Positions 23,962-64,000 of a stretch of 64,000 nt of DNA are shown piece after piece. Within the stretch, counting starts at the first letter, position 1. Every line of letters begins with the position of its first letter. The DNA lies in the NCBI GenBank assembly GCA_039621445.1, contig CP154954.1, positions 39,207,816 through 39,271,815 on the forward strand. Reading direction: 5' to 3'. The stretch comes from Euglena gracilis. Its lineage: Eukaryota. A program made the translations under genes and the position numbers. The notes beneath the pieces are model-generated. The model saw only the letters and a list, made by a program, of their open reading frames with translations, was not told the origin of the DNA and searched no databases.

Positions 23962-24033
23962 GAGGGCCAGGACGAGGAAAGACTGTTCGAAGACGAAACA
24001 ACACTGGAAACACTGGCGAAAGAACTTCAGAAA

Positions 24034-27694: not shown

Positions 27695-28149
27695 CGCATG
27701 TCGCATACCCCAGCGCTCTGTCACAGATGCCGACACGTCGCCACCCCCAACAACCCCGTCGCCAATCCCAACCCTACCACCCCCACCAACCCCGACAAGC
27801 CCTCTTCACCATCCCCACCATACTACCCCCACCCCTACGTGCCCTTGAGGCCCAACTTCCTTCCCCCCTGTGCCTCCGAACATCAACACCAACGCAAATG
27901 AGGCCACACCCACCACCATACCGCCCCCACCTCCATACCAACCCCCAACGACAACCCTCACCACAACGCCCTCAAGAGCCCCCACAGCCACCCCCACAGC
28001 GGAGCCCCAGCCCGAACCCCCCACAGCCGGAGCCACCGAGCCCTCCGCGGAGGCGGAGACGCTCAGTCTGCTCCAGCCCGGGCAGTTTACGGGGGGTATC
28101 GCTGCCCCTGGACAGCCCCCCAGCAACACCCCCCCGCAGTCCACGAATA

Positions 28150-34570: not shown

Positions 34571-34652
34571 TTGGTGTTGGGGTTGGCGCGGGGTTGTTGG
34601 GGGTGGCGACGTGTCGGCATCTGTGACAGAGCGCTGGGCTATGCGACATGCG

Positions 34653-37600
34653 TCACTCCATCCCCCTCAAGCAACTCTCTCACATCCACAGCCAGGTCCG
34701 TTTCTTACAATATTGGACCACATCTTTGTTGGTTCGGAGGAAGAAGTGGTTCAAGGGTTCCCACTGAGTGTCAGACGGGTCCCAGTTTTTCCACTGAATC
34801 AAAAATTGAAGTTTTCCGTCTTTTCTGCGGTGGTTCAGCACTTTGTCAACCTCCCATTTATCCGGGCCAACCTCCAACTCCTGTGCTTTGCCCGACCAAA
34901 AGTAGAGGGGGACAGGGGTTTTGTTGTAGTGGTCTCCCACGTGGGGTTTGAGTTGTGAACGGTGGACAGGTTGTCGGTTTCCAGGTCGTAGTTCAACCAC
35001 CTAGGAGTGTTGTCCTACCCGTTCCAACACCACCGCAGGTCCTTTCCACTTCGGTTCGAGTTTGTCGGTGCCAGGTTTTCTTTCGGGTTGATACCAGACT
35101 TTCGAGCCGATTTCCAACGCAGGTGGTTCTCTGCGTTTTCTGTTCACCGTTTCAGCCCGTTCACGCTGTTTTTCGTTCAGGGCCAGGCTCACCCACTGGT
35201 CTTGTTCTTTCATCCTTCCCAAGAACGCTGTGGCCCCTTCCGCTTCCCTTTGTGGTTGATATGGCAATCCCGCCAACGGTATGTGCCTGCCAAACACAAT
35301 TTCGTACGGTGACAGTCCCGTTTCACCTTGGACGTCGTGTAGGGCCTTCAAGGCGTTCGGTAGGAGTTCAACCCAGGGTACCCCTGCCCGTACGCCACAC
35401 GGATACGTACAGTGCACAATGTTTTCACCAACCGGCTGTCAATTGGGAGCCCCGGTCGGAGCTCACCACCGAGGGTATCCCAAAAATTACCCACTGTTTG
35501 TACATTTCCTTTCCAACCTTTTCCGCTGCGAGTCCCTTGGCCAGGTGGGAGGTTGCAACCATCCACCCACTCAGCCTGTCCACACACAACGCCAACGTGT
35601 CATATTTTTTCACTTCAAAGGTCGTTTCAGGTAGAGAGAACAGAACGATAGCAACACTGTCCATGAGGTGTGCATGAATCGGTGTCGGTTCAATGGGGCA
35701 CTTGCATGGTAGGTGGCTGGGTTCTGTTGCTTGGCAGGTTTCACACATGGTCATCATTTTGCCTGTCAGTTTTTTTGCATCCTGGTGGTCCGCAAACACA
35801 AACCACCTTCCCATCTGGTCCCAAAGTTGGGCTGACCCTGGGTGCCCGGCTGTTTCGTGATGTTCCCGAATTACGTTTCCAGTCAACCCGCTTGGTACAC
35901 ACAGGAGACCGTTTTTGAAGAGCCTGCCGTTGTCGAATCGGTACCCGTCAGGCCAGTTTTTGAACCCCGTTTCCTTCAGGTCCTTGAGCACAGGTCCCCA
36001 CCTTGGGCAACTTTCGTACTCGTTCTTCCATTCCCTGTCCATCACCCCTTTCGGTTCCCCCTGTTGAAGCTCCGGGGCGTGCACTCCGCTTGATGGAGGT
36101 CCAACGGGTGTCCCCGTTGAGGATGACGCACCTTGCGCGTCCTTTTGTTTTGTTGAGTCGTTTGTTGTTAGGGGTTCCACAGGGTCCTCTTCCAGGGGTC
36201 TTCGCCTTGGTGTATTCCTCAGTGGATGGTCCCTCGGCCGTGTTTGGATTTTCTGGGGTTTTTTTTTTGTTGGTCTGGTCGGATCATGTTTCCTGCCTCA
36301 TCCGTGGTCTCCCTTGGGGTTGCTTCTGCAGTTTTTTGCTTGGTTCCACCACAGTCGCTTCCTTCACAACCCACTTCTTTGACGTTTTTGCAGGTTTTTG
36401 TGGTGTTTTGAATTTTTTGAGGGGTGTCACCGTTTTCCGTTGAACCAGGCACTGTGGGCGAATCTTCACCCGTTTTGGCTCCCCCCCTTGTTGTGACTGC
36501 CACAGTGACGGGTTTTTGAAGTTGTTTTTGTGCCTGTGCCAGGTCTGCCACGTTGATCACCATACAAGTTTTCTGTTCCTTTTCCTCCTATTTGATGATT
36601 TCTTTCATGAGTCGGTCGTCCTCCTCACTCCCGTGGATACTCACGTCGGCGAATGCCTGTGTGGCGGGGTAGGCCCACCTACTCAAGGCATCGGCGACCG
36701 TGTTGCCTTTGCCAGGTACGTATGCTACGGTTATGTCGAACTGCGAAAGCAGTTCGTGCCACCTAGCCCTACGTCCAGCTGGTCCACTGAGAGTGTCCAG
36801 AACCTCCGTTGCCCATGCCTCAATGCACTTGTGGTCCGTCAACACCAGTACCGGTTGCATTCCTATCCAGGAAGCCCATTTTTGCAGGGCCAGGATCACT
36901 GCGTAGGTCTCCTTTTCCCTAGGAGACCACGAGCGAACCTGCCCAGGTGTCAGCTTTCGTGAACAGAAAGCTACGGGTACTGTTTTTTTGGTCATGGCTG
37001 TTGTTGGTTCTGGTTTTTCTGGAGTGTCCTCCCCAAATTGTTCCAGAGCCGCACCTACGGCTCTGCCACTTGCAACCACCCTGAGTATGAACGGTTTGTC
37101 TGGGTTCACCGTTTCCAGATTGGGGCTTCTGAGCAGTTTTTCTTTGATGGTCTGAAAAGCGGTTCGTTCCTTTTCACCGAAAAACACAGGTGTCAGGCTT
37201 CCTTTCTTTCCCTGTCCCTTTTTCACTTTCAGTTTTTCCATCAGGCCTGCAGCCAATTCCGCGTACCCTGGAGTGTATGAGGCATAATAGTTTGTGAATC
37301 CCAGGAATGCCCGTAGGGCTGTGACCGTTTTTGGTTCCTTTCATTTTTACAAGGCCCTCAGTTTTCCAGGTGCTGGTTTTCGTTGTCAACCACCCAGCAA
37401 ATGTCCACAGAGTTCAACCTCTTTCACGAAAAATTTGCATTTCTTGATGTCTGCCACGGTGTTACTGTTTTTCCAGTGCCTCCATCACCCTTCTGATGTC
37501 CTTGTCGTGTTGTTCGAGGGTTTTGTCTTCTGACCCCTGCCATACGGTTCCTACGATTATGTCGTCCACGTAGGGGTTTGCAATGTCCTGTACCTCCTCC

Positions 37601-40600
37601 AGGCTGTACTCGACCACCCTCTGGAAAATCGGTACACCGTTTTTCATTCCCATGAACACCACTCTCCACTGTTTTGTTGCCTTAGGTGTGCTGCAGCAGG
37701 TGTAGGGTCTGGACTCTGTTCTCAGTGGCACCTGATGGAATGCGTCTATGAGGTCCAGTACACTATACATGGCCCGTTGTCCTTGTTGAACTAGGATGTC
37801 TTCTATCCCAGGCAGGGGATGGGCATCTGTGATTGTTGCCTCGTTCAGTGCTCTGAAATCCACCACGCCTCTCCACTTTCCACCTTTTTTGGCCACCGCA
37901 AACGTGGGGCTGGACCAGTCACTCCTCCCGTCTTCCACTTTCAGGTCCCTAACCCATTCGTCCACCATGTCGATGAGTGCGTTCTCCTGTCATGTGGATG
38001 GGTCTTTGCTTTTTTGCCACTGTTCCAGGTTTCAGCTCAATCTTTCCAAATCCCAGTGGTCCGCGTTCTGGGGGGTCTGGGTAGATTTTGTCTTGCAAGA
38101 CCACTCCTTCATAGTCCTGCCGCAGGTTTTTCACCAGTTCAGCCACCTTTTCACCTTGTGTTTCATGTCCTTCTGGCAGCACCACAACACGGTGTACCCT
38201 GTCAGATTTCTTTGCCAATTTCTGAAGTTGTTTAGCCAGTGTTTCCAGTGCTGTTTCGTCTTCGAACAGTCTTTCCTCGTCCTGGCCCTCTTAAGCAGGA
38301 ATCTGAAAATTCATTGCCCGCACTGCCGAAATGTTTTTCTGAATTTGGTGTATTTTAGGTTCCCTGTGTTTTTGTTCCTTCAGCTGGTGCCAACTGGACA
38401 GCAGCCGCAGGGGTTCACCTATGAGGGCTAGTGATTGTAGGTGTGGGAAAACCCCCAGTTGGTGTTGTTCCATCCACGGATACCCGAGGATGGCAACCAC
38501 TTGGATGTCGGCATCATGGAATGTTCCAATGGTGGAACACTCCCTTGTCCTGTCCGTGTTGTGCACCCTTGATGAAAACTGCAGTTCCACTGTGACTTCG
38601 TGTAGTCCTTCTTCCATCCTTGTTCCGTCCGCTGTGATCATGGCCAGGGGTTTTTGTGAACGACTGAAGTTTTGTTGGGGAATCAGGTTCTTTTCCACCA
38701 GGTTTGCCTGTGCTCCCGTGTCAATCAGGGCCTGTAGGAACGTTTTTTTGCCGTCTGGCAAAACAGCACGGACTTCGATGAGGAGTTGTTTTGCTTTTTT
38801 TCTGCTGATGGCCTGCCCCAGCAGGAGTTTGGACACCGGTTCACACAGTCGTTTTTGAAGCCGAATGTTTTGGTCTGGATCTGTTTTGTCAGTTGAATCT
38901 GGGTTTGGCTGTTGACCTGTCGGGTTCTGGTCTGGGCTGTGAGAGCATGTTTTGTCGTGCAGTCTGGGCAGGGCTGGGCTGCTGCAGCGGTGGTTGCTGC
39001 GCGGCCTGGGCTTGGCTGGTTTGCCGTAGTTCGTGGAACCCCGCCAGGTCCTGAATCAGTTTGTCTGGGATCCTGAATTTTTTTGAAGGCTGGGATGTTG
39101 TGTTTGTTGCTGAGTTTCACCAGGTGACCACCACCGTTCGGGCCCAGGTTTTTGCAGGTTTTTCCGTCACACCGTTTTGCTGGTACCTGCAGGATGTCAG
39201 GGCTGCCCCAGATTCGTGTTGGTTTTTTGTAACCCAAGTCAGTGTATTGACAGTAATCCACGTCAACGTACGGGTACGGTTTCATGTCATCTCGTTTTCT
39301 CAGGTATCCGTACCTTGGGTTTTCCAACAACCATTTTTGCGGCTGCGGAAATTCCACAATTTCCAGGGCTTTCTTTGCAAGGCTGTCTCCTTTTTCCAGG
39401 TTTCTGGGTCTTGTCGTCAGGGCAATGCTGAATTCTGTGCAGGGAACCCCACACACCACCGTGTGAAAGTCACCAGGTTTGAAATGTTTCCTGAAGTCCC
39501 AGTCCAGTACGTCCACCTGGTAATCCGCTTTCCACCTGGGGTCTGAATCCACTGTCACCACCTCGAAACCCATTTCGTCATACACCTTGCTGACTGACTT
39601 TGTTCCACAGAACAGGTCCAGCATTTTCGGTTTCAGTTTTTCTGCTGTGGCCCGTTCTGGTGTCGCTGTGGCTGCCTCCTGCACTTTTCTGATGTGTTTC
39701 TGTTGTTTTTCAGTTGCCAAACCGGTTTTTTGTTCACCACCCTCCACCTGGTCCTCCACTGGCGGGTACTCGTTGGCTGTGCCGAACCTCACCTTGGATG
39801 TCGGGTGTAGGGGGGTGAAATGTTTGTGGAAACCTGGTAGGTACTTGCACCGTGTTTTGTGTCCGCATACCAAAAACACTTCCACGGGCCACGGTATTTC
39901 CCTGCTTTTCTTGTCACCCTGTCCGAACAGTTTTGTTTTCGCTGAAATGAACATTGACATCACTGCCAGTTTTTTGATTTCTCCGTACCACTTTCTGTGA
40001 ACCCATCTGGGTACCATGAGGAGTGCATGGGCCTCGTCTGTTTGAATTTTTCTCACCACCTGTGAAGTTTTGCTGAATGGGAAGTTCATCCACAGCAGTT
40101 TTCCGTGCCAGTCTTTCTCAAATGCGTCTGTGCCCTCAGGGCTGCCCGATGCCACCATTGCGAGAATCTTTTGTTTTTTTCCGTTGCAAAGGCATCCAGC
40201 TGGGGCTGGACTCCGAAGTGTGAGAGAATTTCCGTCATTTTATCTTCCTTCACGTGGTAGTTTTCAGACACCCACCGTGAAGCCGCTCTGCCGAACCTGC
40301 AGCTGACCTGTTCCCTTTTCGGTCCTGGGCTGTGGAGTCGTTTTTTTGTCAGGATGTTTTTCTTTTGAGGTTTTTTCTTACCTCCCTTAACCAGTGTGTA
40401 TGACCGCTGCGGCTCTGGACCTGGTTCCCTTGTTTTGTCTAGTTGTTTCGGTTGTGTCTGCAGAGAGTCGCCACCCTCGTCCCCTACCCTCAGGCAGCAG
40501 CCCCTTCACTTCCGTTCTGCATTTTGAACTGGGTGCCAGCGATTGCTGGAGGCTGCTTCTGCCTTTGGCTGTCCCCGTGGCTGGTTGGCTGGCCCCTGTG

Positions 40601-43600
40601 AATTGGTTTGTTGTGGCTGTGGTTCAGTTTTCGTTACTGCTGGCTGTGGCTGTGGCTGCCCTGTACCTTTTCCTTTCCCGCTCCCTTTCCCAGAATCGTA
40701 TCCTTTCCCAGAGTTGTATCCCTTTCCGGAATCGTAGCCCTTGCCGTAATTCTGATTCAAGTTCTGGTTCTGGTTCCAGTTTTGGGTTGAACCCCAGTTT
40801 TGACATTTCTTCTTTCCTTTGCCTTTGCCTTAGTCGTTCTGTCTCCAGTGTTACCAGTTGGTGTATCGTCCCTGGCCAGGCTGTTCTGAAACTGCCATGG
40901 GCACCTGCTGGCGTGGAGAGGGGGGTCTTGTTTTTTCAGGTGTTGTGGTTCGAGGTCCAGGGGAGTTGGGTCGGGATCTGGAAGGTGGTGTCCGACTTCT
41001 GGATTTTGTTTTTTCCTCCTCCTTGACTTCCCTAACGTTACCCCTGCGGTCCATCGACCGTGATCTGTTTTCACGAGGTTGGTTCTGCCAGCCGTTGTAC
41101 CCTTTACCTAGGGAGTCTGACTGTTGTTGGCACCTGAGTTCAGTTTCCACCCGTTCGAACAGTTCGTCCAGAGTCAGTCTGGCTTGCACCTGTGTGAAGT
41201 GTGGTTTGTGTCCAGTCAGCAGCGTTGAACCGTTTTTCATCAGGAGCAGTTCAGCAGCTCTGCTGCTGTGCAGATGGATTCTGAAGTTTTGTCCGTCTCG
41301 TGCCACCTGAAAATTCTCACCTGTACCCACAGTTGCTGCCACCAGGTCACGAACGGCTTCCGTCGTTGCATCTGGGATCGTAATGTTCGTGACCCCTTTC
41401 GGTTTCAGTGTTGGTCTGTCCTGATTTCTGCGGTCCTGTTCCCTGATGCAGCTTCTGCGTTGTGTTTCAGGCATTTTTTCAGCCACCGGGCTGTAAGCGT
41501 CTTCCTCTGATGGGTTTTCCAGCCTGCTGTAGAGGAGTTTGAAATGGGCATCAAACTCCCTCCACGCTTCCAGTGTAAGTTTTCCTTCCGTTTTTGGTCT
41601 CAGGTTTTTCAGTTCGTCTTTGATGGCTGATTGCGTGTCTCCACCGTATTTCTGCTGGCGCACCCAGTTCCAAAATTCCTGGAATTTTATTTTCTCACCG
41701 CGTTCCTGTCTGCGTTGTAGTTCCAGTTTACTGGCACTGTCCAGGCTGCTCTCCAGCAGTGACAGTTTCAGGTCATCAGTCACGGACCCCTGACTGGCTG
41801 ACACACGTTGCAGGTGCATTGGAAATTTCACGGCAAAATCTACGAAATTCCCCTGCAGTGTTGGTCTTACCAGGTTTTTTTTTTTTTTCTCGCACACTGG
41901 ACCCAGCAGCAGCCCGAAGGGTGCCGTCGGGGCCGTTGCAACCGGTGCCACCACTGTTTCCTCTCCTATGTGATGGATGGCAGTTTGGGTAGACCCCACC
42001 TGGGGTCCCACCCAGGTTGTTGTGGCTGTTTTCTGAGTTTCTGTTTCGTCTGCCCACATGAACAAGCCCCGAGTCCGGAACTGTGGGTTTTGTTGTGTCG
42101 TCACTGGCTGTTGATTCTGCTGCGTCGGCTGGGTTGGCTGTGGTGCAGGGCTTGTCGGGTTCGTCGGGAGTGCTGGGCTGGTCGGCACTGCAGTCGGTCG
42201 TTGTTCCGTTTGTCGAGTCAGTTGGGCAATTAAAGGTGTCAAGGCAGTCTTTTTTTCTTTGCTGGATGAGCTGCCCCACCATGGAAGCCGAGTTAACGGT
42301 CCCCAGTGTTGCAGCTACTCCTTCCATTTTTGGGTGTGGTGTTTCAGCACCCCAGTGCTGGCTGCTCTGGCTGAACGTACCTGTGAGGGGTTGTGGGGTC
42401 CCCGCCCCCGTTTGACAGGCCTGGGGTTCTGGGGTCCCCGTCCTTTGGCTTCCTACGGTCTGGCCCCTCAGGGCTGGCGGTGGCTGGGCCAGGGGTTGTG
42501 GGGTCCCTGCCCAGTGGGCTGGCCCCTCGAGGCTGGCGGCAGGTTCTGGGGTTGTGCGGTCCCTGATCCCCGTTGGCCCGCGGCCCTGTCTGTCCCCTGG
42601 GTGGGCTGTTCCGTTCGTTGGGCTGTCGTGGCTTCCCCTGGCTGTCCAGCCTGGGTCCTCGCGGGAGGCCCACTGGTCGGGGGGCCGGCCCCTGTCTCCG
42701 GCCCGAAGGCCCCTGTGCAGGCTTGGCGAGAAGAAATGCTGAAATTTTCAAAAAGGTTGGGTATTTCAGCCAGGCTAGGGCTGGGGTTTGTGATTTGCTG
42801 GGTGTTTTCCCTTTCCAGTTTTCCGGTCAGGTACTCAGTCGTTTTTGTCACTGTGCTGTGTTTTCTGTCCAGGGTCACCAACTGTTCTGTCCACCGTTTC
42901 TGCTGTGTTTGCAGTTCCGTGGTCAGAGCATGTAAGTGCTGCGGGATGCTGTTGTCCTGGGTTTCCCGTTCTGCCGTTTTTTTTGTCAGACCAGCCAGTT
43001 TTGCTTCCATTTGACCGACCCTGGTTGTCATTGAGCTAGTGGCAGATGTCATTTCCAGCCATTTAGCTTGTTCCGCTGTGGCATGTGTTCCCGTCTTAAT
43101 GGCACCTTTCTGCAGTCCACCCAGCAGTTTTTGAGTCGTTTGGGCTGTTTCGTCCACCTTGTGACCCAGGCTGCCGACCTCCAGGTTCAGTCGTTCAGTG
43201 CGTTGCTTGTGTTTTTCTTCGTTGGAGGTCAGGTTTTCCACCTGTCGTTTCAGTCTGCCGATTTCCTCGTTCAGCTGTGTAACCTGCTGTTGCTGATCTG
43301 GTATTTTCTGCAGTTCGACCATTTTTTTGTGCAGGTAATCACAGTTTTGAATGGTGTTGTTGTTTTTGTTTCCTGCTGATGAACCCGTCCTGCTAGATTT
43401 CCGATTTCACTGCCCATGTCCTTCTGAATTCTTTCCACCACACTGCTGATTTCGCCTCTGAGGTTTTCAACCTTTCTGAAAACTGTTGCCACAGTTTCGT
43501 CCACTTTTCTGTTCACCGCTTGGACGCCGCCTGTGATTCCTGCAACCCGTTCTTATGCCACAGCCGTTCTCTGTTGCAGTTCTGCAGTTGTTTTTTCGTT

Positions 43601-45047
43601 TTCTCGCTGTCGGTGCAGTAAACCAACCAGATGTTCACCCTGGTTCTGTGCATTTCCACCAGCCATCTGCAGAAAACTGTGAAATTCCCTGAGTTTTTCG
43701 CCCGTTGAGCCAGACATTTCCCTGATTTCCGCGATCTGCTGTGACATTCCGTTGAAATGTTCCTGGTACAGGTTGTTCTGGTTCACTGTCACCAGTTCCA
43801 TGTTCGCTTGCGTTGTTGCGAGGACTGTTGTCAGTTCTTCTTGTCTGCCGTTGATTTCTGTCAGGAGTGCTTCAGCCTGTCTGTTGACTGTTGCGTGCAG
43901 TTCGCTGACCCATTCCGTCGTTTTTTGCTGTAGCTGCTGCCGTGTTTCTGCCGTTTGCTGGTTCGTCTGTTCAGTTTTGTGTCTGAACTGTTGAAATTCC
44001 TGGGTCACCTGTCCAGTTTCGTAAGCAAAGTTCGACCACCAGTCCCAGTCAGTGTCCTGGTTCTGTGGTTCCAGCTGCGGAATCTCGTACGAGCTGTACG
44101 ATGGTTCCTGGTACGAAGTTTCAGTTTCACCCTGGAGGCGGTCAGGTTGTTCCGGGCTCTGTCGCACCGCCACCAGAGCAAAACTCTGGGTTCCTGGTTG
44201 CTGTGCTGTTGCGGTTTGCCTGCTTTGGTTGTTCTGAGTGTCCTGTTCTGGCAGTTGGAGCCTGTTTTGTGGTGCAAACACCTGTTCGTCAAAGTACGGT
44301 TCGTTGTTTTCGTCCAGTTCAGTGTAGTCTGGTGATGGACCGGTCTTTTCAGTGTCGTTCTGGTCCATGTGCACCATGGCAATGACACGTGGGCTGTCAT
44401 TGCTTGCCTGTGGCACTGTAATGTCTGTGCCGTTTTGTTCAGTTTCAGTCCACCTGTTGCTGTCCAGTGACTGGTACATGGCGGCAACGCCATCTGCCGG
44501 CTCCACCACCCTAGCGATGGCGGTTAAGGCAGCTGGCGTTTCCAGTGTTTGGTTCAGGGCTGGGAAACCATCTGCCTGCTCCACCACCCTGGCGATGGCG
44601 GTTAAGGCAGCTGGCACATCCAGTGTTTGGTTCAGAGCTGGACAGCCATCCGCCGGCTCCACCACCCTAGCGATGGCGGTTTCGGCAGCTGGCATGTCAG
44701 CGTCAGTCTTTCAGTTTCTTGTCGTTTTTCAGTTTCTTGTTCGTAGCCGCATGTTGGAGGGGAATCAAAAATGGGGCAACCTACCTCTGCTACCATGTTG
44801 TATTCGTGGTACCTGCCCTTGAGTTTCCAGTCCCTCGGGGCCGGCACCCCGTTGCGTAGGATCTTTAACCCTGCCCAGGGTGTTTTCAGTTCCCCTCGCG
44901 GATTGTTCCAGAAATTGCATTTTTCTTGTTTTGGGTGGGTTTTTTGGGTGAAAACAGGTGGGTTCCTTGGCTCACACCTTTCCTTTAAAAAAAAATCCAC
45001 AAGCAATCCAGCAAGCAAAGCCACAAATGAAGTACAAATGAATCCAC
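34653..45047 (-). mobile_element. Ty3/Gypsy chromovirus family A, mirror copy (decayed)
   Basis: gag ~45047-40506; MTases 40271-39070; PR 38836-38291; RT 38218-37260; RH 37256-36588; INT-chromo ~36050-34653. Confidence 0.93.
38725..40158 (-). CDS. Single ORF joining the Dam-like MTase and C5 MTase domains (family A, right copy)
   Basis: 477-aa ORF: DAFEKDWHGKLLWMNFPF..LMVPRW, then MLDLFCG, GVPC, LENP, KKPTRIW in one frame. Confidence 0.88.
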   Translation of the reverse strand: MVASGSPEGTDAFEKDWHGKLLWMNFPFSKTSQVVRKIQTDEAHALLMVPRWVHRKWYGEIKKLAVMSMFISAKTKLFGQGDKKSREIPWPVEVFLVCGHKTRCKYLPGFHKHFTPLHPTSKVRFGTANEYPPVEDQVEGGEQKTGLATEKQQKHIRKVQEAATATPERATAEKLKPKMLDLFCGTKSVSKVYDEMGFEVVTVDSDPRWKADYQVDVLDWDFRKHFKPGDFHTVVCGVPCTEFSIALTTRPRNLEKGDSLAKKALEIVEFPQPQKWLLENPRYGYLRKRDDMKPYPYVDVDYCQYTDLGYKKPTRIWGSPDILQVPAKRCDGKTCKNLGPNGGGHLVKLSNKHNIPAFKKIQDPRQTDSGPGGVPRTTANQPSPGRAATTAAAAQPCPDCTTKHALTAQTRTRQVNSQTQIQLTKQIQTKTFGFKNDCVNRCPNSCWGRPSAEKKQNNSSSKSVLFCQTAKKRSYRP

Positions 45048-48000
45048 AGACCAAGGTACGTAATGTCCAGGGTAAGAATGATAACTGATGCCACCAAGAT
45101 AATTCAGTTCTTGAACTTGAAACAGACAAAAACAGAGACAGAGCCCTGTGCAGGGACAGATGGAGTCAGCTTATTTGTAATTCCTAATATATAATTTTCA
45201 TAATCCTAACTGCGGAGTCATCAGGTTGGGTAGTGTTAGGTTGTGTTGTTTTGTCCACTCAGCACCCCTGACTCACACCCTGCCACAGCATGATTTTAAC
45301 CGGAAGACCCTGACTCAGCCTTCGCTTGATTTTTTGTAAGAATTAGCACCTGGCCGGTGGCTGATCGCTTGGCAGGTGCAGGCGGAACCCCCCAAACGGG
45401 TGCTACCCCTTTGAAAAAAGGGCGGGGTCTGTGATGGGCGCCTTGCGCCTGCCCCCTCCCCCACTCGACAAGGGACCTGGGGGGGACAGCCCCTTAAAAA
45501 AAAGAACAAGCACCAGGCCAGCTCCCCCCTTCGAGCAGGGAAGACGGTGGACCGGCCTGTGACCAGCACATGAGCGGTCCAGCCCCTTTTAACAAACGCA
45601 CTCCGCATCCCTTCCTAAGTGATTCGAGAAGAGTTGTAAACAACTCCTTCTAAGGGGTGTGTGAGTCAGGAGTGCTGAGTGTCCTGGCAAGTTGGCTAAC
45701 CTCAGGCGCCAACCTTAAAAGCTAACCGAGGCGCCCCAGAACTAAACAGAGAACTTGGACTAACCAGGGACCTACAGTTTCAATGACGAAACAATAAGGA
45801 TAATCCCTTCCTGACGGAATTTTAACCTCGGACCACATTTTACACAAGGCTGGCCACACTGACTTCTACAAGGCTCGGTCACTATTCTGTCCTTCCTCAA
45901 TCTGATTATACATTTGCAACGGCAAATCTGGTTCCAGTTTGAAGTCAATTCAAGTTTGTCAAGGTTCATTTGAATTCTAAGTTAATTTTCTGTTCACGTA
46001 CAGGTCTTGTGGTCTGAAGTGAATTCTGAAGCAGGAATTGTTGCTGCTGGTGTGCCTAAGAGCGCTTGTTCCCTTGCGTCAATGTCTGACCAGGACCCGC
46101 AATTTGAAGGCCTTTCGCTGCTTTTAGCAAGACCTGCCTGCTTTTTATACCCGTTCTGTGGCCAGAGACCACCCAAGGGCCCACCCCACACTAACCCCGA
46201 GAAAGGAAAAGATCTTTTCAAGTAACAGGAGATGAAACAATTTCTAACAAAGACCACCCGGGGAGTTGAGACTCAACTGGACAGGGTAATCGATCCTATG
46301 CGGTGGCAGGGAATCCACATGGACCTCGAACAAGCCGAGAAGCAAAGAAGGTTATCCCGCACAAATGTACCCAGGCAGTAAACGGTAATTCAGGTCGTTT
46401 TCTTTACAGGCTGTGAAGCTTGCCTGTGGTAATGAAGTTTGATTTGCAGCAAACGAGGTGGTGTCCGAGAATTTATGATGATGCAAAGCATTTGGGACAG
46501 AGTTTGGGATAGGATTCCATTGGTGTGAGGGTCATTCCGAGGGACCAACGAAGTGTGCAGCGGAATTCAGCTGTGGGTAAAAGGGTGCGCAGTCCTTGAG
46601 ATGGTGTCAAAGCGGCCCACGCCACGGCACGTGGTTGGCATTGGCTTGCAAAGCGTATAGCTTCAGGTCCATTTAATGCGTCAGAAAGTGTTTTCTGGCG
46701 GGAAAGCATGCTCTGATTCCACCAACGTTATGTATTGTGTGGAGACTGTGCCTGAAGATCAAGTTTTTGTCATTGGCCCATTGGGGCAGTGGTGCAATCT
46801 GGCCAAGTTCGTTGAGGGGTGTCGCAAACAATCGTTAGCGCACTTGGAAAGGATGTCCACGGCAGCGGGCAGGCCCAAGACATAGGGAGCTGTGCAACCT
46901 TCCGAACGGTGGTTGGGCGAACCGAGTCCACCGACCAGTGGAACAGCCTACTGGATTTGAGGAGCTTGGTGCAGTAAGGCTATATACAGAGGCAACAGTC
47001 TATGCACGCTTGTGAAGGGACGGAAGGTAATAGGGCAGAGCTTTTACAATAGTAACAGCCCGAGGCGAGGCCGTTGTTGCTCAGCTTCCGGATTTCTTCG
47101 GCAACGTGAGTAAGAGTGGTTGGGCAGGCAATTGGGAGGTTGCGGGTGTGTCAGTGCCGTTTACGGTCTGGGTGTTGATGACCGGTGGGCCGGTGATCCC
47201 GGTTTCCAGTGGCGTGTGGGCGGCATCTCGGCAGGTTTATGGGGGGAATGGTCAGGTGCCGCAGGTCAGCTTGTTGTCTTTCCTGCCTTGCGGCTCCTCG
47301 GGGTGCCGTTGCGGCTCCGTCGTGTTAATTTGGTAGTGTGACTGGTGTAGAGTCTTGCTTGCTTTGGCTGCTGTAGAGGTCCTCTGCCGTACTTGTGAGT
47401 CGAAGTCCACTTTAGGCAACAGTTGTTTCCACCAGCGCACCTCAGTTTGTTGTACTGACAGGCCCTATGGGCACTTGGAAAAACTTTGCATACACAGCTT
47501 TGAGAAATATCTGGGCGTTAGAGGCCGGGCGTGCTGTTCTTTTTATGCGTACGGTCGACGAGCTTCGGCAACGCCCCCAACGGCCGAGTCCTCACGCACT
47601 GCCCCCAAAACCAGTTGCCCCGCCAACTCTCTGCCCATTACCTTACTGAGTGCTTGCCAGCAATTGCCCTCAACTCCCCTTCTCTCCCACGCGTCGCCTG
47701 GCCGGCAAGGAGGTGAACGGAATTGGTAACGATTGTGAGTGCCGCGTCCCCCATCTCTCAATAGCAGTCCACTACGAAGGGGATTAATGTCCAGCCTCTC
47801 CGCTGGCACCACTCGCCATACTTCCTCACCTTATCCTCCTCTTGAGCCTTGTGCCACTTTCAGGTCTCATCCGTGCCAGGGCGCGTCGGAGATGGTGCCT
47901 AGGGGTGTCGGATGGTGACATCGATCGCCGCTGGTCCATCCGTGTCGTATCTCATGACAACATCCCGGGACGTGGACCATCGGGCGAGCTTTCCTCCCTC

Positions 48001-57000: not shown

Positions 57001-58442
57001 GGGAAAGCGGGGCAGGCAGGTTTCTTTGCCACGCAAACCCTCCACCCAGGTTAGGTGTGGCCAAGGCACGTGCGGTTGGTTCGATGGGCATTCCAGGAAA
57101 ACCCGGGAGGGTGTGGAATGAGTTTGCCCCTCGCAAGTTAAACCTGGGTACGTCTGATTCCCAATTCCCCTTCCCCAAAATCCTTCGCTTTCGCCTTGTC
57201 GCACCTACTTGGGGACTGAAAATAAGAGTAACAGTGAAAACCATTTTCTCCCACTTCCCAAGAAGCAAAGCACGGAGCAATGTGGGTAGGACGGACTGAA
57301 AATCCAAGTCCGGTCCAAGGAAAAGGAAGGAAAAGGTATAAGAAGAAGGGGCACCCATTAGGGGGACCTGTACAGAAAGAAGGGGCACCCATTAGGAGAT
57401 CCTAATAGGATCTGCTTCCATCCTAACTTCCTCAACGGAAGGGGACAGAAGCATACGCCTGGTACACATCTCCCTCCAAGGGCTATGCCCGAATTCCCCT
57501 TTGGACCAGGCATTCTGGCCACAGGGATTTCGGAAACGGACCTGGTCTGTTGGAGGTGCACCCTATCGCATCCACAGGGGCCCTTTCTGTCGCACAGGGG
57601 TCCACTCAAAAGGGGGGGGAAGGGTGACCCAAAGGCCCAAAACGCGCAAAATGGTTTCACCTATTCTGCGGTGGCTTATGGGTGTATAGTATATTATAGC
57701 CCACTGGGGAAAATGGGGCTGGCAGGTTTCGTTGCCAGGCAAACCCATCCACCCAGTTTGGGTGTGCCAGAGGCACTTGGGGTTGGGTCCATGGGCGTTC
57801 CAGGAAAACCCATGGGGATGGTTTGGAAGGAGGGGGCCGCTGACCAGTCAAATTTGGGCAGGGCGCATGGCCAGTCAAATCTGACCACGCAACAGGAAAG
57901 TTTTACTCTACAAAACCAACTGCCGGCGACTGCATTTTGTCGGCCGCCGGCTTGCGCCGGCAGCCAAAAATTGCCAGAAGGCGCAAATTTCAAAGTCGCG
58001 GCTAACAGCCAATCAGTTAAAAAAACCCGCGACTTAAATTGGAAGCGGGTCAAATTTCGAAGCGCCTTCGAATTTGTTTTTTTTCACAGAACTTGAGGGG
58101 TTTTCCCCAATATTTGGCAAGAAGGGATACTTTGAAGTTGAATTTGTCATTTGGACTTTGAATCGGAGTATCAAGTTGAGTTTCATTGTTGGTCATTGAT
58201 CTATTGAAGTCAATTGTTGTGAAGGAGCCTTTAACACCACCGCCCACCTCCCTATATCCCCGCCATCTTCACCTCCGTCTTCGCCTCCGACGACCACTCC
58301 TTACCCCAGGTTTGCACATTCCAAAGTTTGCACATTTCACAGTTTTCAGTTTCTCAATTCAAGGTCCCAAAGTCCCAAAGTGGGTTGGTTTGTGGTTGGC
58401 CTTTGGGTTGGTTTGCCATCAAGGTGTGTGTGAGAGAGAGAA

Positions 58443-61400
58443 GTGAGATTTGCAATGCAAATGGCAGATTTTTCGATTTTGAGCAAAATTTCGGAAACCG
58501 CTAAAAAAACGATCCTACGCGCCGGCTGGGGTTGGGGAAACCACCTGGGTGAAAAAAAGGGGGTTGACTTGAGCCCACCAACCCCCGGAGAAAGCGCAGG
58601 CCCCACCCCGGAAACACCACCCCCCCTGTCGGTGGTCCTCCCCACTGGCGAGGACCCCCCTGGGCCCTCGGCCCGAAGGGACTCGGCGGTCGCGGAGGCG
58701 ACCGACAGCCCGGGGGTGGCGGACCCGGTGAACATGGTTAGCAGAGGTTGGCTCACTGACTTCGTCAGTGAGGATTTTTCAGATCCGGTAAACATGGCAC
58801 ACGAGGGCAGTTTTACCAACCCAGTTGTCTGTGAATTTTCAGAAGAATCTGCAGAAATCTGCTCGTTTTCAGGTCAATCTGTCCGAGTTTCAGATTGTGG
58901 TGAAAATTTTCTGAGATCTGTGGCAGAAATCTATTTTCAGAACGAAAAGGAAACTGAGTTTTCTGCAGCCCAGTTTTCAGAACCTGTGGCATCATTGCAA
59001 ATCGTGACGGAATCTGTGGCAGAAAACAATTTTCAGGCTGCAGAAACTTTATCGTCTTCAGAAACGACACAGGAATCAGAATCTGATGCTGATTCTGGGA
59101 GGGGGTCAATTACATGCGTAAGGCCCATCACGGTGGCAGGGCCAGAAAATTTTCAGCTGGTTCCACTGCACAACAGTGATGAGGAACCAGACCCCCCAGC
59201 TTATGAAAGCGAAACAGAGGAAGAAAAACAGGCTGAAAACGCCATAATTCAGGAAATGGTTATGCAAAGGATGAAAGCTGCTGGCATGTGGCCAGTAAAT
59301 TTTTCAGGTTTTCAGCAAATTTCTGTGTCGTCACGAGACAGCAGCCCAGGGCCAGAACAAAAAATTTTGTGTTTAACAGCCCAGCCAGAACCATTGCTGT
59401 TAACACAGAGTTCTGAAACGCAGTCAGCACAGCCAGCTGCAGCCCAGCTGCAGGTTTTTCAGCCAGCCCAGCAGTTTTCGGCTGGGTCATCTGTTTCAGC
59501 AATCATGGGGCCAGCCCAGATGACTTCACAGGTTTTTCAGCCAGCCCAGCAGTTTTCGGCTGGGTCATCTGTTTCAGCAATCATGGGGCCAGCCCAGATG
59601 ACTTCACAGGTTTTTCAGCCAGCCCAGCAGTTTTCGGCTGGGTCATCTGTTTCAGCAATCATGGGGCCAGCCCAGGTGACTTCACAGGTTTTTCAGCCAG
59701 CCCAGCAGTTTTCGGCTGAGTCAGCTGTTCCAGCAATCATGGGGCCAGCCCAGGTGAGTGGGCAGGTTTTTCAGCCAGCGTTAACAGTGTCTTCAAACAC
59801 AGGCCCAGCCCAGACTTTTCAGCCAATTCAGCCAGATTTTTCACAGACCCAGCCACAAAATTTACAGCCAATCACCAGATTTTCTACAGAAACTGGGTCC
59901 GAAAACCCTGAAAATCAGCATGATGTGGAAATGGAATCGGGCTATGGCCAATCTGATGATGATTGGAACAATTGGGGTGAAGAAATCAGTTGCAAAATTG
60001 AATGTTTACATGGCAGACTTTTGGTGCAGGAAGGAAAAAACCCTGAAAAAAGGGCTGAAATTCTGGTGGGTGAGGCAGAAAACAGGCTAAATCGGGCATT
60101 GGCCATGTCAAATGGGCAGGCATTGAATCTGGTCAATGAGGCATTGGGCATGCATGATCAGCGAATGGCGGATCACATTGCCATGGTGAAACGTGAAATT
60201 CGGGCTGAAGTGAGTTCAACTGTAAACGACTTGCTTTTGCAGTTTCAGCAAAATGGTGAAATGGTGCAAAATCTGGCCCAATGCCAAAGGCATTTGTTGA
60301 GTGTGGAAATGGAACGGCAGTTTGCTGAAAAAGTGCAGAAAGTGGAGGATGGAGTAAACACATTTTTTGAGGCCCAGGTTGAGGGGTTGAGAAAAAATGA
60401 GAGAGATTTTTCTCAGAAGCTGTCGTTTTTGGAAAAATCTGTGGGGGAGATGCACGTGGCGGTGCAACAAGTGGGGGAGAAGGAAAAACAGCAGGAGATT
60501 GCTGTTAATCAGGTCAAATCTGCAGTTGGTGAGCTAAGCTCTGGTCTGGAGGGACGCTTTGGGATCATTTTTCAGCAATGCAAAAGTTTGGGGGAGACTG
60601 AGTGTGCCAAATTTCAGGTACAGGCTGAGAAATTGAAGGAATTTTCACAGTCCCTGGAGCGAGAGAGCAAAGCTCTGAATGATCGTTTGGGGAGGTTGGA
60701 GAATTTTCTGGGTCGGAAAGATTTTCCCATTGAAAAAGTCTGTGACCTGATTAACAAGAGCGAGGAAACAATTCGGTTGGAGGTGCAAAGGGAGTTGGGG
60801 CTGCAAACGAGAAAGAATTTGGAGGTCATTATCAGTGAAATGTTGCAGGAAAGGTTGAGGCTGAGTGAAAGGGAGGGGCAGTTTGAGAAAGTTCGGGCTG
60901 AAATGGAAAATTCGATGAAACAGCAGGTTGGAGTTTTACTGCAACAGCAGTCCAGTGAACTTTTTAAAGAACAGCAGGAGCGGAAAAAATTGCAACAAAA
61001 GCTGGATTTATTTCAGGCTGAGTTTTTGGTGAGGAAAAATCAGCAAGCTGAATCTGCCAAATCTGCGACAGTGGATCTGACAAAGGAAACGAGAGAAAAA
61101 TCAGCTGGAAACCCAGAAATCGAAGAGTTTGATCTTTTTGGTTACAACGATTTACCTGTGATCGAGAAAAATCCGGTTGAAATTGAAGGCTATGAATACG
61201 CTGAACCAGGATCACATGCGACACATGTCAGGCAGGTTTGTGCACGACCTGTGGGGGCAGTGCCTGCAGGTGCAGGACTAGTTTCATCAAATGCAGTGGC
61301 AACGCATCAATTGATGAAAAACCTGGTAGCTCCAAATTTTTCTGGACAGCCAAAAGACTGGTCGTCCTTTGTGCGGGATTGGGATCAATATTTCAGGACG

Positions 61401-62597
61401 TTGGTTATTTTGCAAAATGGACATATGTCTGATTCACTCAAGCTTCAGCTTTTTACAATGACGCTGGACGACACAAATAAAAAGGAATTGCAATTCCGAC
61501 TGGAATTGAATGGAAAAACATCTTTCGAGGAGGAATTTGACAGGCTTGAAGGGAAATATGCTGGAACTCAATCCGAATGCGCCAGAAAAAAATGGTATGA
61601 TGTGAACCTCGTGAACCAAGGGAAAATTACCGTACAGGAATGGCGAGATTTTGTCATAAATTTCAGAATAGCCTGGAGACAGGTGAAAAGCGCCACTGAC
61701 GATGAGGCAGAAAGACTGGTCAAGGGAAAACTGCCAAATTTCATTTTGCATTGGGTCGCCGATGAGGAGGAAAGGAAATCAACGTGTGGACCGAAAGTCA
61801 AAATGTACCCTGGAGTGCCTGCAACCGAGGAAAACATTATTTGTGCTGTGGAACGTGTCACTGGGGAAAAGCCCTGCAAGGTTTCGAAAGTTTCACCGCT
61901 GGAGTTCGAAGTCTTTTTGCCCAACACTACGATTTGCGACAAACTGAAAGAGGTCAGTGGGAAACCAATCACAGGCACGGATAAAAGGATCAAAATTGTG
62001 GAGGAACAGCCAAAAATGGGAGTTGAAGAAATTTTCCGTTTTGTTGAGCGAAAATTGTCATCCAGGGACTCTCAAGACATGATACACAGTTCCAGGGAGC
62101 CAAATCCATTTGGAAACCGGAGGGCCAGGTCTGCTAAGGCAGATCGGGCCAAGGGGTCCAGGACACCCTCCCCAACACGGTCAGCAAAGGGGGGCGAAAC
62201 GGTGGCAAAACTGTCCGTTGGAAAATCAGATTCACAGGTGGCAGCCCCTGCGACCAATGCAAACATGAACCCCCCCGTGCAAAATCCAGTGCCAGTGGTT
62301 CGATCACAGTCATTGCCACCCCCCCAGCAATCTCAATTTGGCAATGGGGGGGGATGGAGAAATGATTCTGGGTGGAATTCCAATGCCAATGCCAATTTTC
62401 AGGGAAATCAGTGGTGGCATTCAAATCAACAGAATTTTGACTCACAGTCTGGTGGAGGCAAAGGCAAAGGCAAAGGCAAGGGCAAAGGAAACAATTCTTG
62501 GGGGAAAGGAAACAATGGAAATGACTGGTCTAGGGGAAAGGGCCAGGATGGTGGAAAAGGCAAAGGAAAAGGAAGGGGGAAAGGAAACCGTTGCTAG
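58443..62597 (+). CDS. gag: Intact 1384-aa Gag-like protein (first ATG at 58455)
   Basis: Uninterrupted ORF; APNFSGQPKDWSSFVRDWDQY is a retrotransposon capsid-like PxFxG..W motif; E/Q/K/L-rich central region; GKG tail. Confidence 0.85.
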   Translation: MRFAMQMADFSILSKISETAKKTILRAGWGWGNHLGEKKGVDLSPPTPGESAGPTPETPPPLSVVLPTGEDPPGPSARRDSAVAEATDSPGVADPVNMVSRGWLTDFVSEDFSDPVNMAHEGSFTNPVVCEFSEESAEICSFSGQSVRVSDCGENFLRSVAEIYFQNEKETEFSAAQFSEPVASLQIVTESVAENNFQAAETLSSSETTQESESDADSGRGSITCVRPITVAGPENFQLVPLHNSDEEPDPPAYESETEEEKQAENAIIQEMVMQRMKAAGMWPVNFSGFQQISVSSRDSSPGPEQKILCLTAQPEPLLLTQSSETQSAQPAAAQLQVFQPAQQFSAGSSVSAIMGPAQMTSQVFQPAQQFSAGSSVSAIMGPAQMTSQVFQPAQQFSAGSSVSAIMGPAQVTSQVFQPAQQFSAESAVPAIMGPAQVSGQVFQPALTVSSNTGPAQTFQPIQPDFSQTQPQNLQPITRFSTETGSENPENQHDVEMESGYGQSDDDWNNWGEEISCKIECLHGRLLVQEGKNPEKRAEILVGEAENRLNRALAMSNGQALNLVNEALGMHDQRMADHIAMVKREIRAEVSSTVNDLLLQFQQNGEMVQNLAQCQRHLLSVEMERQFAEKVQKVEDGVNTFFEAQVEGLRKNERDFSQKLSFLEKSVGEMHVAVQQVGEKEKQQEIAVNQVKSAVGELSSGLEGRFGIIFQQCKSLGETECAKFQVQAEKLKEFSQSLERESKALNDRLGRLENFLGRKDFPIEKVCDLINKSEETIRLEVQRELGLQTRKNLEVIISEMLQERLRLSEREGQFEKVRAEMENSMKQQVGVLLQQQSSELFKEQQERKKLQQKLDLFQAEFLVRKNQQAESAKSATVDLTKETREKSAGNPEIEEFDLFGYNDLPVIEKNPVEIEGYEYAEPGSHATHVRQVCARPVGAVPAGAGLVSSNAVATHQLMKNLVAPNFSGQPKDWSSFVRDWDQYFRTLVILQNGHMSDSLKLQLFTMTLDDTNKKELQFRLELNGKTSFEEEFDRLEGKYAGTQSECARKKWYDVNLVNQGKITVQEWRDFVINFRIAWRQVKSATDDEAERLVKGKLPNFILHWVADEEERKSTCGPKVKMYPGVPATEENIICAVERVTGEKPCKVSKVSPLEFEVFLPNTTICDKLKEVSGKPITGTDKRIKIVEEQPKMGVEEIFRFVERKLSSRDSQDMIHSSREPNPFGNRRARSAKADRAKGSRTPSPTRSAKGGETVAKLSVGKSDSQVAAPATNANMNPPVQNPVPVVRSQSLPPPQQSQFGNGGGWRNDSGWNSNANANFQGNQWWHSNQQNFDSQSGGGKGKGKGKGKGNNSWGKGNNGNDWSRGKGQDGGKGKGKGRGKGNRC
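59451..59779 (+). repeat. 78-bp (26-aa) coding tandem repeat, 4 copies plus a partial, in family B gag
   Basis: CAGGTTTTTCAGCCAGC at 59451, 59529, 59607, 59685, 59763; unit QVFQPAQQFSAGSSVSAIMGPAQMTS. Confidence 0.97.
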
Positions 62598-62861
62598 GAC
62601 AGCCGGGGTGGACCGTTGGGGGCGGGAGCCGCCCCGGGCTCGCATACCCAGCCCCACACAAAGACATACGCAACTCCCAAATGGCATGAAAAATCTCGTG
62701 CGAGTGAAAACACGATGAAAAATCTGCCATCCCAGGAGACCTTTGCGCAAGGTGTGTCCAGTGTGTCGGGTGCGTGCGTGCGTGACGTGCAAATCTGTGA
62801 TTCAGCCCAAATCTGTAAAAAACCAGACCTCATAAGAGGTCGTGCACAGCCTTCCGTAAAG

Positions 62862-63450
62862 AAAAGAGCTTTAGACCTTTTTTGCGGTAAAGGCTCGGTT
62901 GGGGATTGCCTGAGAGAGCAGGGGTTTAAGGTTGTGTCAGTGGACATAAACCCCAGATTTAACCCAACCCACTGTGCAAATATTTTGGAATGGAGATATT
63001 GGAGGTACCCCCCCGGATATTTTCAGATCATCGCTGCGGGGGTGCCCTGTACAGAATATAGCTTGGCCAAAACATTGGGAGTCAGAAATTTGGAGGTGGC
63101 AGATCGGCTGGTCAAAAAAACTTTGGAGATTGTCGAATATTTCAAACAAAAATGGTGGTGGATTGAAAATGCCGGTAATGGACTTTTGCGGAAAAGACCC
63201 TGTGTTCAAAATCTGACTTTTTGATGTTGATTATTGTCAATTTTCAGATTGGGGATATCAAAAGCCCACCCGAATCTGGGGGAGCGAAAATCTGAGCAAG
63301 CTACAAAACAAACTTTGTGATGGCCAGACCTGCCCGAATTTGATTCCTGGGGGGAGGAGTCACCGAGAAAAGTTGGGAGGATATGGAATGACAGTTGGCA
63401 CCCAGAAAAAATGGAGGATGCCCAAACAACTGGTGGAGTATTTGTTAACC
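62862..63450 (+). CDS. C5-cytosine MTase domain of family B (one frameshift at ~63220)
   Basis: LDLFCG (62871), GVPC (63039-63050), IENA; after the T-run frameshift DVDYCQFSDWGYQKPTRIWG...WRMPKQLVEYL. Confidence 0.9.
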
Positions 63451-63477
63451 GTGTTGGAACGAAAAAGCGGATATCGT

Positions 63478-63870
63478 AGGGAGGATTATGCTGTTAGGAA
63501 AGTTTGTATGGAGGAAATTGAGAAGGAATTTCGGGTTAAGGCGGAACGGGATTGTTTTGCAACCAGCCAAAATGCCAGGTGTGAAAAGTTTTACGGGGAG
63601 GATGATGATGCCATGAAAAAGGATTGGGGGGCGGAGGAAACGTTGTGGATGAACCCCCCCTGGACTTTGTGGCCTGAGGTGGCTGAAAAATTGCAAAATT
63701 CCAATTGTCGGGCAATTTGTATTTGCCCAGACTGGAATAGGAGGTGGGTGAAAAATCTGGTGGCTATGGCTGTCAAAAAGATTTATTTTCCCAAGGGGAC
63801 AAAGTTGTTTGAGGCTGATGGGAGGATTTTGAGGGGTACCCGTTGGGGGGTGTGGGCCTTGTTGATGGAT
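63478..63870 (+). CDS. Dam-like N6-adenine MTase domain of family B; frame open to the window end and absent from the ORF track
   Basis: Manual translation: REDYAVRK..RDCFATSQNARCEKFY..DAMKKDW..LWMNPPW (NPPW 63652-63663)..ICICPDW..KGTKLFE. Confidence 0.9.
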
Positions 63871-64000
63871 AGAAGGCAACCCTCCCAGGGGGGGGCAGCC
63901 CCAGGGAAGAAAAAATTGGTACGGCTGAAAAAAAGAATGTTGAGGGGGACAAAAACTCGGGGAGGAGCAAAGAAACTCGGGGAGGACAGACAACTGCTGT

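Follow-up and report, generated by a model that had tools for sequence, protein, structure and literature searches.

Why should one retrotransposon carry two DNA methyltransferases of different chemistry, and does the survival of both through a change in their order mean that selection acts on the pair? The question is raised by a 64,000-nucleotide stretch of Euglena gracilis DNA (contig CP154954.1, positions 39,207,816 to 39,271,815), referred to here in its full length as the window, which contains retroelements of two families, A and B, each with a C5-cytosine methyltransferase (C5) and a Dam-type N6-adenine methyltransferase (Dam). The best explanation of family B, in which we place considerable confidence, is that 58434-64000 is the 5' portion of a single member of a Ty3/chromovirus-like family that is transcribed and present in very many copies in Euglena gracilis or in a very near relative. 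The complete element would consist of gag, one in-frame TAG, C5, Dam, protease (PR), reverse transcriptase (RT), RNase H (RH), integrase (INT) and chromodomain, and would be of the EpiLTR type, the name given in a preprint of May 2026 to long terminal repeat (LTR) elements with Dam, a DNA methyltransferase (DNMT) and a chromodomain (Fernandez-Moreno et al., bioRxiv 10.64898/2026.05.21.726589, main text). Family A would be a sister lineage that has diverged but is built on a backbone of the same type. After a small number of rearrangements, the pair was probably passed on vertically in each lineage, with purifying selection acting on it.

The last 5.6 kb of the window, 58434-64000, form one coding unit on the plus strand (Table 1). 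The gag-like frame at 58434-62597 matched no Pfam family, and the Pfam scan detected no zinc knuckle in it; its C-terminal part aligns with the gag frame of family A at 25% identity over 310 residues (E 1e-10). Beyond the stop codon, the N-terminal part of C5 shows motif I (LDLFCG, 62871-62888), the catalytic PC of motif IV (63045-63050) and E-N-A of motif VI (63165-63173). The Dam domain exceeds the PF05869 cut-off of 28.1 with 42.1 bits (E 9.2e-11).

Table 1. Coordinates of the family-B coding unit and of the two family-A copies in the window
Feature	Position	Strand	Remarks
Gag-like frame of family B	58434..62597	+	1387 codons; first ATG 58456; stop TAG 62595-62597; Gly/Lys-rich tail
Lone in-frame TAG separating gag and pol	62595..62597	+	From frame analysis; the same reading frame resumes at 62598
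Pol start: 86-residue leader, then N-part of C5	62598..63224	+	208 codons
Second pol frame	63217..63999	+	Overlaps the first frame by eight bases; continues past the window end
Lesion (overlap of the two pol frames)	63217..63224	+	Window copy two letters shorter than other copies
C-part of C5	63217..63480	+	DYCQ..KPTRIWGS block, Cys..Cys..His block, last helix
Dam-type N6-adenine methyltransferase domain	63481..63885	+	Pfam PF05869; NPPW at 63652-63663
Linker heading to protease	63886..64000	+	Ends with the window; P0063 99% identical here
Family-A copy, plus arm	17099..27772	+	C5 frame 22595-23527; chromodomain frame 27038-27694 (E 2.3e-10)
Family-A copy, minus arm	34576..45165	-	Gag, Dam-like then C5 (frame 38725-40239), PR, RT, RNase H, integrase

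The window ends before the 3' half of B, and the 523 nt on the 5' side of gag B (57938-58460) have no match elsewhere in the window. The Ty3 pol expected downstream is present by proxy in a protein from a transcript, EukProt EP00667_Euglena_gracilis_P000113 (P0063, 1540 residues), which matches the last 63% of the query, the Dam part of the window included, at 99% identity. In P0063, Dam is followed by protease, RT, RNase H, the zinc-binding and core domains of integrase, and a chromodomain, with Pfam matches to PF00078, PF17917/PF17919, PF17921, PF00665 and PF00385 (chromodomain, E 4.8e-13).

Family A is arranged as gag, Dam-like, C5, protease, RT, RNase H, integrase and chromodomain. A reading of the window made earlier from its sequence alone (the sequence-only reading) had proposed that the methyltransferase pair of B, C5 then Dam, is reversed with respect to A, Dam then C5, and that the two families are strongly diverged. 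The reversal holds in frames, motifs, Pfam matches and A-B alignments, and the divergence is evident from identities of 32-62% across the shared domains. A and B share 46% identity in the N-part of C5 (115 residues, E 7e-32), 49% in its C-part (69 residues, E 4e-18) and 32% in Dam (91 residues, E 5e-12), a sequence likeness far above chance. Further downstream, with P0063 standing in for B, the identities are 33% for PR, 48% for RT, 62% for RNase H, 50% for integrase and 38% for the chromodomain.

Three protein searches provided 144 relatives, almost all metagenomic, in which domains were marked by iterated profile searches seeded from three stored proteins; Pfam confirmed the domain orders in 12 of the 12 long proteins scanned. 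The order of B (C5, Dam, then protease where covered) is found in 28 proteins, and that of A is proven by a following protease in two. Seven more have Dam then C5 with insufficient length to separate order A from protease-Dam-C5-RT, the arrangement of ten others. Dam is absent from 16 proteins with C5 then protease and from 23 with protease then C5 and/or C5 then RT, and 54 are one-domain fragments. In eleven order-B metagenome proteins, C5, Dam and protease share one open frame, which in six of them includes RT, and P0066 (1763 residues) and P0069 (1911 residues) are open from C5-Dam to the chromodomain. The order PR-RT-RH-INT is displayed by P0063, by four full-length order-B metagenome polyproteins and by family A in the window.

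Further arrangements are seen at the margins of this set. Four proteins (P0104, P0109, P0091 and P0057) have C5 behind RNase H or in front of integrase, a fourth position in the polyprotein. In P0113, P0117, P0126 and P0097, which have protease then C5 and no Dam detected, 176-192 residues separate the two domains, a gap large enough to house a degenerate Dam remnant. P0143 and P0144 are distant C5 relatives on contigs of 15 and 63 kb, interrupted by Hint/intein domains according to precomputed Pfam annotation.

The two A copies of the window are the product of a 24.6 kb inverted duplication (3197-27772 against 57937 back to 34576), whose arms are 96-97% identical, differ mostly by substitutions and flank a unique centre of 6.8 kb. 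Since both copies lie within it, each arm comprising a family-A element and about 14 kb of flank, one insertion was copied together with its surroundings. The duplication could be real or an assembly fold-back. No direct repeat flanking A was found in the window, where the 3' end of A abuts the inner edge of the duplication. The ratio of nonsynonymous to synonymous substitution rates (dN/dS) between the arms was calculated for five segments, among them RNase H and integrase, and ranges from 0.71 to 4.39; such values reflect neutral decay since the duplication and are uninformative on selection in active elements. The window A copy is itself decayed. Its Dam motif is NFPF, and comparison with P0098, a metagenome protein of 91% identity in which the motif is NPPF and the last C5 helix is intact, shows frame shifts where Dam begins and where C5 ends. 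Among other order-A relatives, P0099, P0100 and P0102 have NPPY, and P0100 places Dam, C5 and protease in one frame of 840 residues. We also note that the arms differ over 7.1 kb by 79 transitions and 115 transversions, an odd spectrum, and that the tail of a third chromodomain-bearing element lies at 2940-3130, just outside the left arm.

The B copy had been described as having intact catalytic motifs and a frameshift in a T-run near 63220 as its only lesion. The Cys, E-N and NPPW are present as described, but the C5 of the window is split by a net loss of two letters and reads a private E-N-A; there is one lesion, as proposed, but it is not a simple slip in a T-run. These details emerged from contigs of four public runs aligned to 58000-64000, namely X1 and X2 (DNA-type), X20 (an RNA-labelled metatranscriptome) and X15. 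Two additional letters, behind 63221 and 63222, are found in seven contigs of X1, 11 of X2, two of X20 and one of X15, and further clipped contigs also end in the longer form. With these two letters, both pol frames join into one. The X15 contig, of 498 nt, spans 62840-63335 and passes through the lesion in the longer form. Within 70 bases upstream of the lesion, at 63154, 63171 and 63174, nearly all depth in all four runs carries other letters, and the window reads W, A and G in place of the family's L, P and R, in L-W-W-I-E-N-P-R. E-N-P is found in 64 of the 65 aligned C5 rows that cover the motif, and E-N-A in the window only. The window copy carries either a cluster of private mutations or a local assembly fault, and the family as a whole is intact at the lesion site.

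Doubts about the assembly also bear on the layout itself, as C5-Dam-pol could be an artefact of nested insertion or of assembly. The inverted duplication with its odd substitution spectrum leaves the assembly not beyond doubt, and the preprint's main text warns of chimeric Euglena elements (10.64898/2026.05.21.726589). On the other side, the occurrence of the same one-frame order C5-Dam-protease in 11 independent metagenome proteins excludes such an artefact as the source of the layout, the order from Dam onward recurs in the Euglena transcript, and the RNA-type X15 contig bridges the lesion in the longer form. An artefactual layout is hence hardly credible, and we take C5-Dam-pol as the arrangement of a real family.

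Both methyltransferases are well conserved in the relatives. NPPW or NPPF is found in 29 of the 31 Dam domains of at least 100 residues, the exceptions being the window A copy and the garbled P0081. In a 66-row alignment of C5, the catalytic Cys and the E-N are present in all 65 rows covering the sites, the window piece included, and K-P-T-R in 62 of 65, within a nearly invariant DYCQF..WGYQKPTRIW block. The C5 domain is minimal, with about 210 residues and a short Cys/His-rich insert in place of the normal target-recognition domain. Mean pairwise identities among five full-length order-B polyproteins are 60.5% for C5, 51.3% for Dam, 54.9% for protease, 78.0% for RT and 80.9% for RNase H; the Dam-protease linker has 32% and the leader 16%. 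The same ranking is obtained for four polyproteins of the protease-Dam-C5 class (C5 59.4%, Dam 49.1%, protease 38.0%). A metagenome scan of 24 loci, about eight of them retroelements, provided one usable close pair for dN/dS, L010 and L012, of a related Dam-less lineage. Their 147 shared C5 codons differ by 60 nucleotides and two amino acids (dN 0.006, dS 1.05, dN/dS 0.006); beyond C5 the frames of the two loci differ, and that stretch does not enter the estimate. This sequence evidence supports retention of the pair by selection, the dN/dS part of it being from C5 in one Dam-less pair.

Several points weigh against reading B as an intact and transcribed LTR element with a co-selected, active pair. 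The N-part of C5 in the window reaches 19.1 bits against PF00145 (E 9.7e-4), under the cut-off of 22, which relatives P0066, P0067 and P0069 exceed in the Pfam scan. The label 'LTR element' for B is drawn from the sequences of relatives, the window having no B LTR or primer-binding site. At the lesion, 14-38% of the summed contig depth of the DNA-type runs belongs to the longer form (11,915 of 82,708 and 11,915 of 35,598 in X1; 26,505 of 132,137 and 26,505 of 69,088 in X2), and the short form may itself be multi-copy. The corresponding shares are 55-100% in X20 and 94% in X15; X15 is labelled as RNA on a guess, and DNA may be present in a metatranscriptome. Contig depth gives neither copy number nor the share of intact copies nor expression level; as it cannot give true shares, we make no claim that the expressed copies are the intact ones, and stretches that no contig covers do not enter the argument. 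Intact polyproteins without Dam also exist, in which no Dam lies upstream and C5 is joined to protease by linkers of 46-57 residues (P0086-P0088, 1003-1916 residues). On their sequences, Dam is lost, or was never gained, in viable lineages. Finally, other eukaryotic DAMs expressed in dam-deficient E. coli gave no rise in N6-methyladenine (6mA), as the preprint's main text reports (10.64898/2026.05.21.726589), and Dam catalysis here is for that reason only predicted.

The sequence-only reading had regarded the domains as kept by selection for the pair rather than as passive cargo. Motifs, conservation and open frames support retention by selection, but because intact C5 polyproteins without Dam exist, 'for the pair' is too strong a claim. 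The view that the domains are cargo, captured once and without benefit to the element, can point to the same Dam-less relatives, to the damaged domains of the window's own A and B copies, and to the negative heterologous assays reported in the preprint (10.64898/2026.05.21.726589). Such cargo would have to have kept motifs and folds across lineages that share 26-49% identity in these domains, to have remained as conserved as protease and far above the linkers, to have reached a dN/dS of 0.006 for C5 in one related pair, and to have stayed open in frames of up to 1911 codons. We consider this very improbable and retain selection as the probable reason for the persistence of the domains.

Predicted structures agree with the assignment of both domains. 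In the AlphaFold model of order-B P0070, computed from a 28-row alignment, C5 (residues 170-385) and Dam (393-528) have a predicted local distance difference test score (pLDDT) of about 90, while leader and linker are disordered. The top Foldseek matches of its C5 are catalytic domains of DNMT1 and DNMT3 (E 5.5e-9 and upward). In the model of the window frame 63217-63999, Dam occupies residues 89-223, also with pLDDT about 90. Its best match is a cap-specific adenosine N6-methyltransferase of the PCIF1 type (Foldseek E 4.1e-4), with VIA Z 10.2 and a root-mean-square deviation of 3.2 over 129 aligned residues; VIA Z is 8.6 for T4 Dam, 8.5 for E. coli Dam and about 8 for the Erm and KsgA enzymes, values moderately above the stated background of 7-8. 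The modelled match supports the fold class, in agreement with Pfam, and nothing beyond it. A sequence search of solved structures gave nothing significant, the best E being 0.056 to DNMT1 with the profile and 0.21 with P0002.

Another possibility is that the domains are kept for DNA binding, targeting or a structural role and not as enzymes. The absence of a 6mA gain upon expression in E. coli, reported in the main text of the preprint (10.64898/2026.05.21.726589), speaks for such a role, as does the minimal C5 in which a short Cys/His-rich insert replaces the target-recognition domain. The residues required for chemistry only are the best kept of all (all 65 C5 rows have Cys and E-N, and 29 of the 31 Dam domains have N-P-P-aromatic), which makes a purely non-enzymatic role improbable. 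Retention of both domains as enzymes is the reading carried forward.

How the two orders arose was approached with trees of C5, Dam, PR and RH. All of them are quick IQ-TREE searches with Shimodaira-Hasegawa-like approximate likelihood ratio test (SH-aLRT) supports only and no outgroup, and the groups of the approximately unbiased (AU) tests were named after the trees had been seen. The PR and RH trees split A, B and the Dam-less C5-PR class from PR-Dam-C5-RT and PR-C5-RT (SH-aLRT 93/93 and 100/100). Arrangement labels cluster, with 17 changes on the C5 tree against a shuffled mean of 39.9, seven against 16.7 on the Dam tree and eight against 27.7 on the PR tree. The C5 tree unites the A rows in a clade (95; 99 in a smaller set) and confines B to one side of a weakly supported branch (59); in this tree and in that of PR, several Dam-less rows fall among those of order B. 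The Dam tree places the A clade (85) beside a deep order-B lineage, P0082-P0084, and the protease-Dam-C5 class, also a clade (99), among the main order-B rows. For Dam, the AU test rejects both all order-B rows together (p 0.0003) and the two Dam-first classes together (p 0.004). For C5, neither A with the PR-Dam-C5 class as one clade (p 0.27) nor A with B (p 0.24) is rejected, and as nothing is rejected, the C5 tree does not resolve the order of events. The sequences nonetheless indicate that each arrangement is phylogenetically coherent, that rearrangements were few, and that the Dam-first order is not one single inherited state.

The comparison of trees had been proposed as a means to tell a domain swap from independent capture. 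It yielded coherent arrangements, but a swap is not separable by it from exchange between related elements. A and B may each have assembled the pair separately, taking Dam or C5 from a co-resident element by recombination. The order-B Dam domains do not form one group (AU p 0.0003), the Dam tree joins P0082-P0084 to order A and the PR-Dam-C5 clade to the main order-B rows, and the C5 tree, unlike the Dam tree, keeps B on one side of a branch (support 59); the preprint's main text likewise proposes repeated exchange or nested insertion in Euglena (10.64898/2026.05.21.726589). Against these stand the single family to which all Dam domains belong, with an A clade at 85 and a PR-Dam-C5 clade at 99, the PR, RH and C5 trees, which group A with B or do not decide, and the post hoc naming of the AU groups together with the long branches involved. 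Separate assembly is on balance unlikely, though it is the most serious of the competitors, and few rearrangements followed by vertical inheritance is the account we prefer.

What the pair would do for the element can be sketched as follows. The pol part would be reached by read-through of the in-frame TAG of gag. RNA structure in the 90 nt from the window TAG is nothing unusual (z 0.37, with 127 of 200 shuffled sequences folding equally well). Two related metagenome loci likewise have one in-frame stop that separates gag from pol, L008 (TGA, 640-642) and L009 (TAG, 3768-3770). In L009 the TAG is followed by purine-rich GGAGGTCAGGG, which we take to resemble the read-through site of murine leukaemia virus. 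The two enzymes, whether freed from the polyprotein or active as parts of it, would then mark newly made DNA of the element itself, either complementary DNA (cDNA) or a fresh insertion. C5 would add CpG methylation, the default state of the Euglena genome, and Dam would add 6mA, which is linked to permissive chromatin. According to the main text of the preprint, CpG methylation in Euglena is near-default and 6mA occurs at a subset of promoters, while a larger share of Euglena DAM-LTRs has 6mA and LTR expression is low (10.64898/2026.05.21.726589). Self-marking by both activities is a possibility that we put forward tentatively. The CpG observed/expected ratio is 0.49-0.60 in all parts of the window and that of GpC 0.62-1.05; the low CpG fits a heavily CpG-methylated genome.

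As to the origin of C5, the nearest non-element relatives found here are stand-alone enzymes on virus-like contigs (38% identity, E 1e-37). The main text of the preprint places the EpiLTR DNMT as sister to DNMT4 (10.64898/2026.05.21.726589), a group outside our comparison. The locus L004 encodes at 1283-1993 a stand-alone C5 methyltransferase of 236 residues with the same motif set, 38% identical to the element enzyme of P0002, and virus-like contigs L002, L003, L005 and L021-L023 contain such C5 as well. The neighbours are a P-loop ATPase, a collagen-like repeat protein and a DUF5754 protein. A scan of viral contigs gave six loci with stand-alone C5 enzymes and no retroelements. On sequence, a virus-like stand-alone enzyme is a possible source of the C5 module.

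Taken together, C5 and Dam might be a co-selected two-mark module of a euglenid-wide group of chromoviruses, re-ordered at least two times (Dam-C5-PR, C5-Dam-PR, PR-Dam-C5-RT) and long kept in each lineage, its C5 derived from small DNA viruses of protists and not from a host DNMT. The module would be delivered by read-through of the gag stop and would write 5-methylcytosine and 6mA on the element's own cDNA before or at integration. This combined account is doubtful as a whole.

Family B is very abundant. The pieces that align to 58000-64000 at 90% identity or more number 13,002 in X1, of which 4758 are at 99% or more, and 17,752 in X2. Contigs of X20 cover 28 of the 30 bins of the same interval. 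X20 is a leaf-litter metatranscriptome in which 26 of 107 pieces have at least 99% identity and 52 of 107 have 95-99%; Euglena gracilis or a near relative appears to be present in the material. An in-frame tandem repeat of 78 nt lies inside gag B (59451-59779, 4.2 copies, 96% match), and its copy number varies among other copies, one joint skipping 190 bases at 59494-59685.

Retrotransposons that encode writers for both DNA marks are relevant to the question of how mobile elements are accommodated in a host epigenome or manipulate it, and Euglena combines near-default CpG methylation with 6mA at promoters. The window and its relatives add that the pair, although reshuffled to occupy three positions or more, is still conserved, that Dam can be lost while C5 stays, and that family B is very abundant and found in RNA-type data. 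Shuffling, Dam loss and abundance together make Euglena a practical system in which self-methylation could be tested.

Comparison with known systems places the element among several partial precedents. It shares with chromoviruses (Ty3/gypsy) the order PR-RT-RH-INT-chromodomain, as in P0063, and differs from them in having two DNA methyltransferases in front of protease and an unusually long gag of 1387 codons. It resembles DIRS retrotransposons in the presence of a Dam-type domain with N-P-P-aromatic within a retroelement; DIRS use a tyrosine recombinase, whereas the relatives described here have a DDE integrase (PF00665), a chromodomain and, in addition, C5. The likeness to phage-type Dam (PF05869) consists of a score over the cut-off, NPPW and a fold nearest to adenine-N6 enzymes, in contrast to which the domain here belongs to a eukaryotic retroelement polyprotein and shares 9-14% sequence identity with the solved enzymes. 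DNMT-bearing retrotransposons of Symbiodiniaceae and Klebsormidium were described by de Mendoza et al. in 2018 (PMC5890265), who proposed self-methylation of cDNA. They too have a C5 DNMT inside the retrotransposon coding region, but those of dinoflagellates are LINE-like or DIRS-like and, in the accessible part of that paper, the DNMT is not accompanied by an adenine methyltransferase within its element, and neither Euglena nor dual elements are mentioned. Their DNMT lineages differ from those of Euglena according to the main text of the preprint (10.64898/2026.05.21.726589).

The closest likeness is to the EpiLTRs themselves, which the preprint's main text reports from Cymbomonas tetramitiformis and Euglena gracilis (10.64898/2026.05.21.726589). 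In both cases a Dam-like domain, a C5 DNMT and a chromodomain are combined in an LTR-type polyprotein, and Euglena gracilis is the host in both; for B, Dam and C5 are in the window and the chromodomain is supplied by P0063. The finding is a correct rediscovery of a kind of element that is already known. The terms 'domain order', 'gag' and 'protease' are absent from the main text of the preprint, whose Fig. 2B or supplements may show orders. Relative to that main text, the present analysis additionally provides orders A and B in front of protease, a third order in which the pair lies between protease and RT, sister lineages that lack Dam, and the in-frame stop of gag. The three arrangements, the Dam-less sisters and the virus-like relatives of C5 could be the new detail that this locus contributes.

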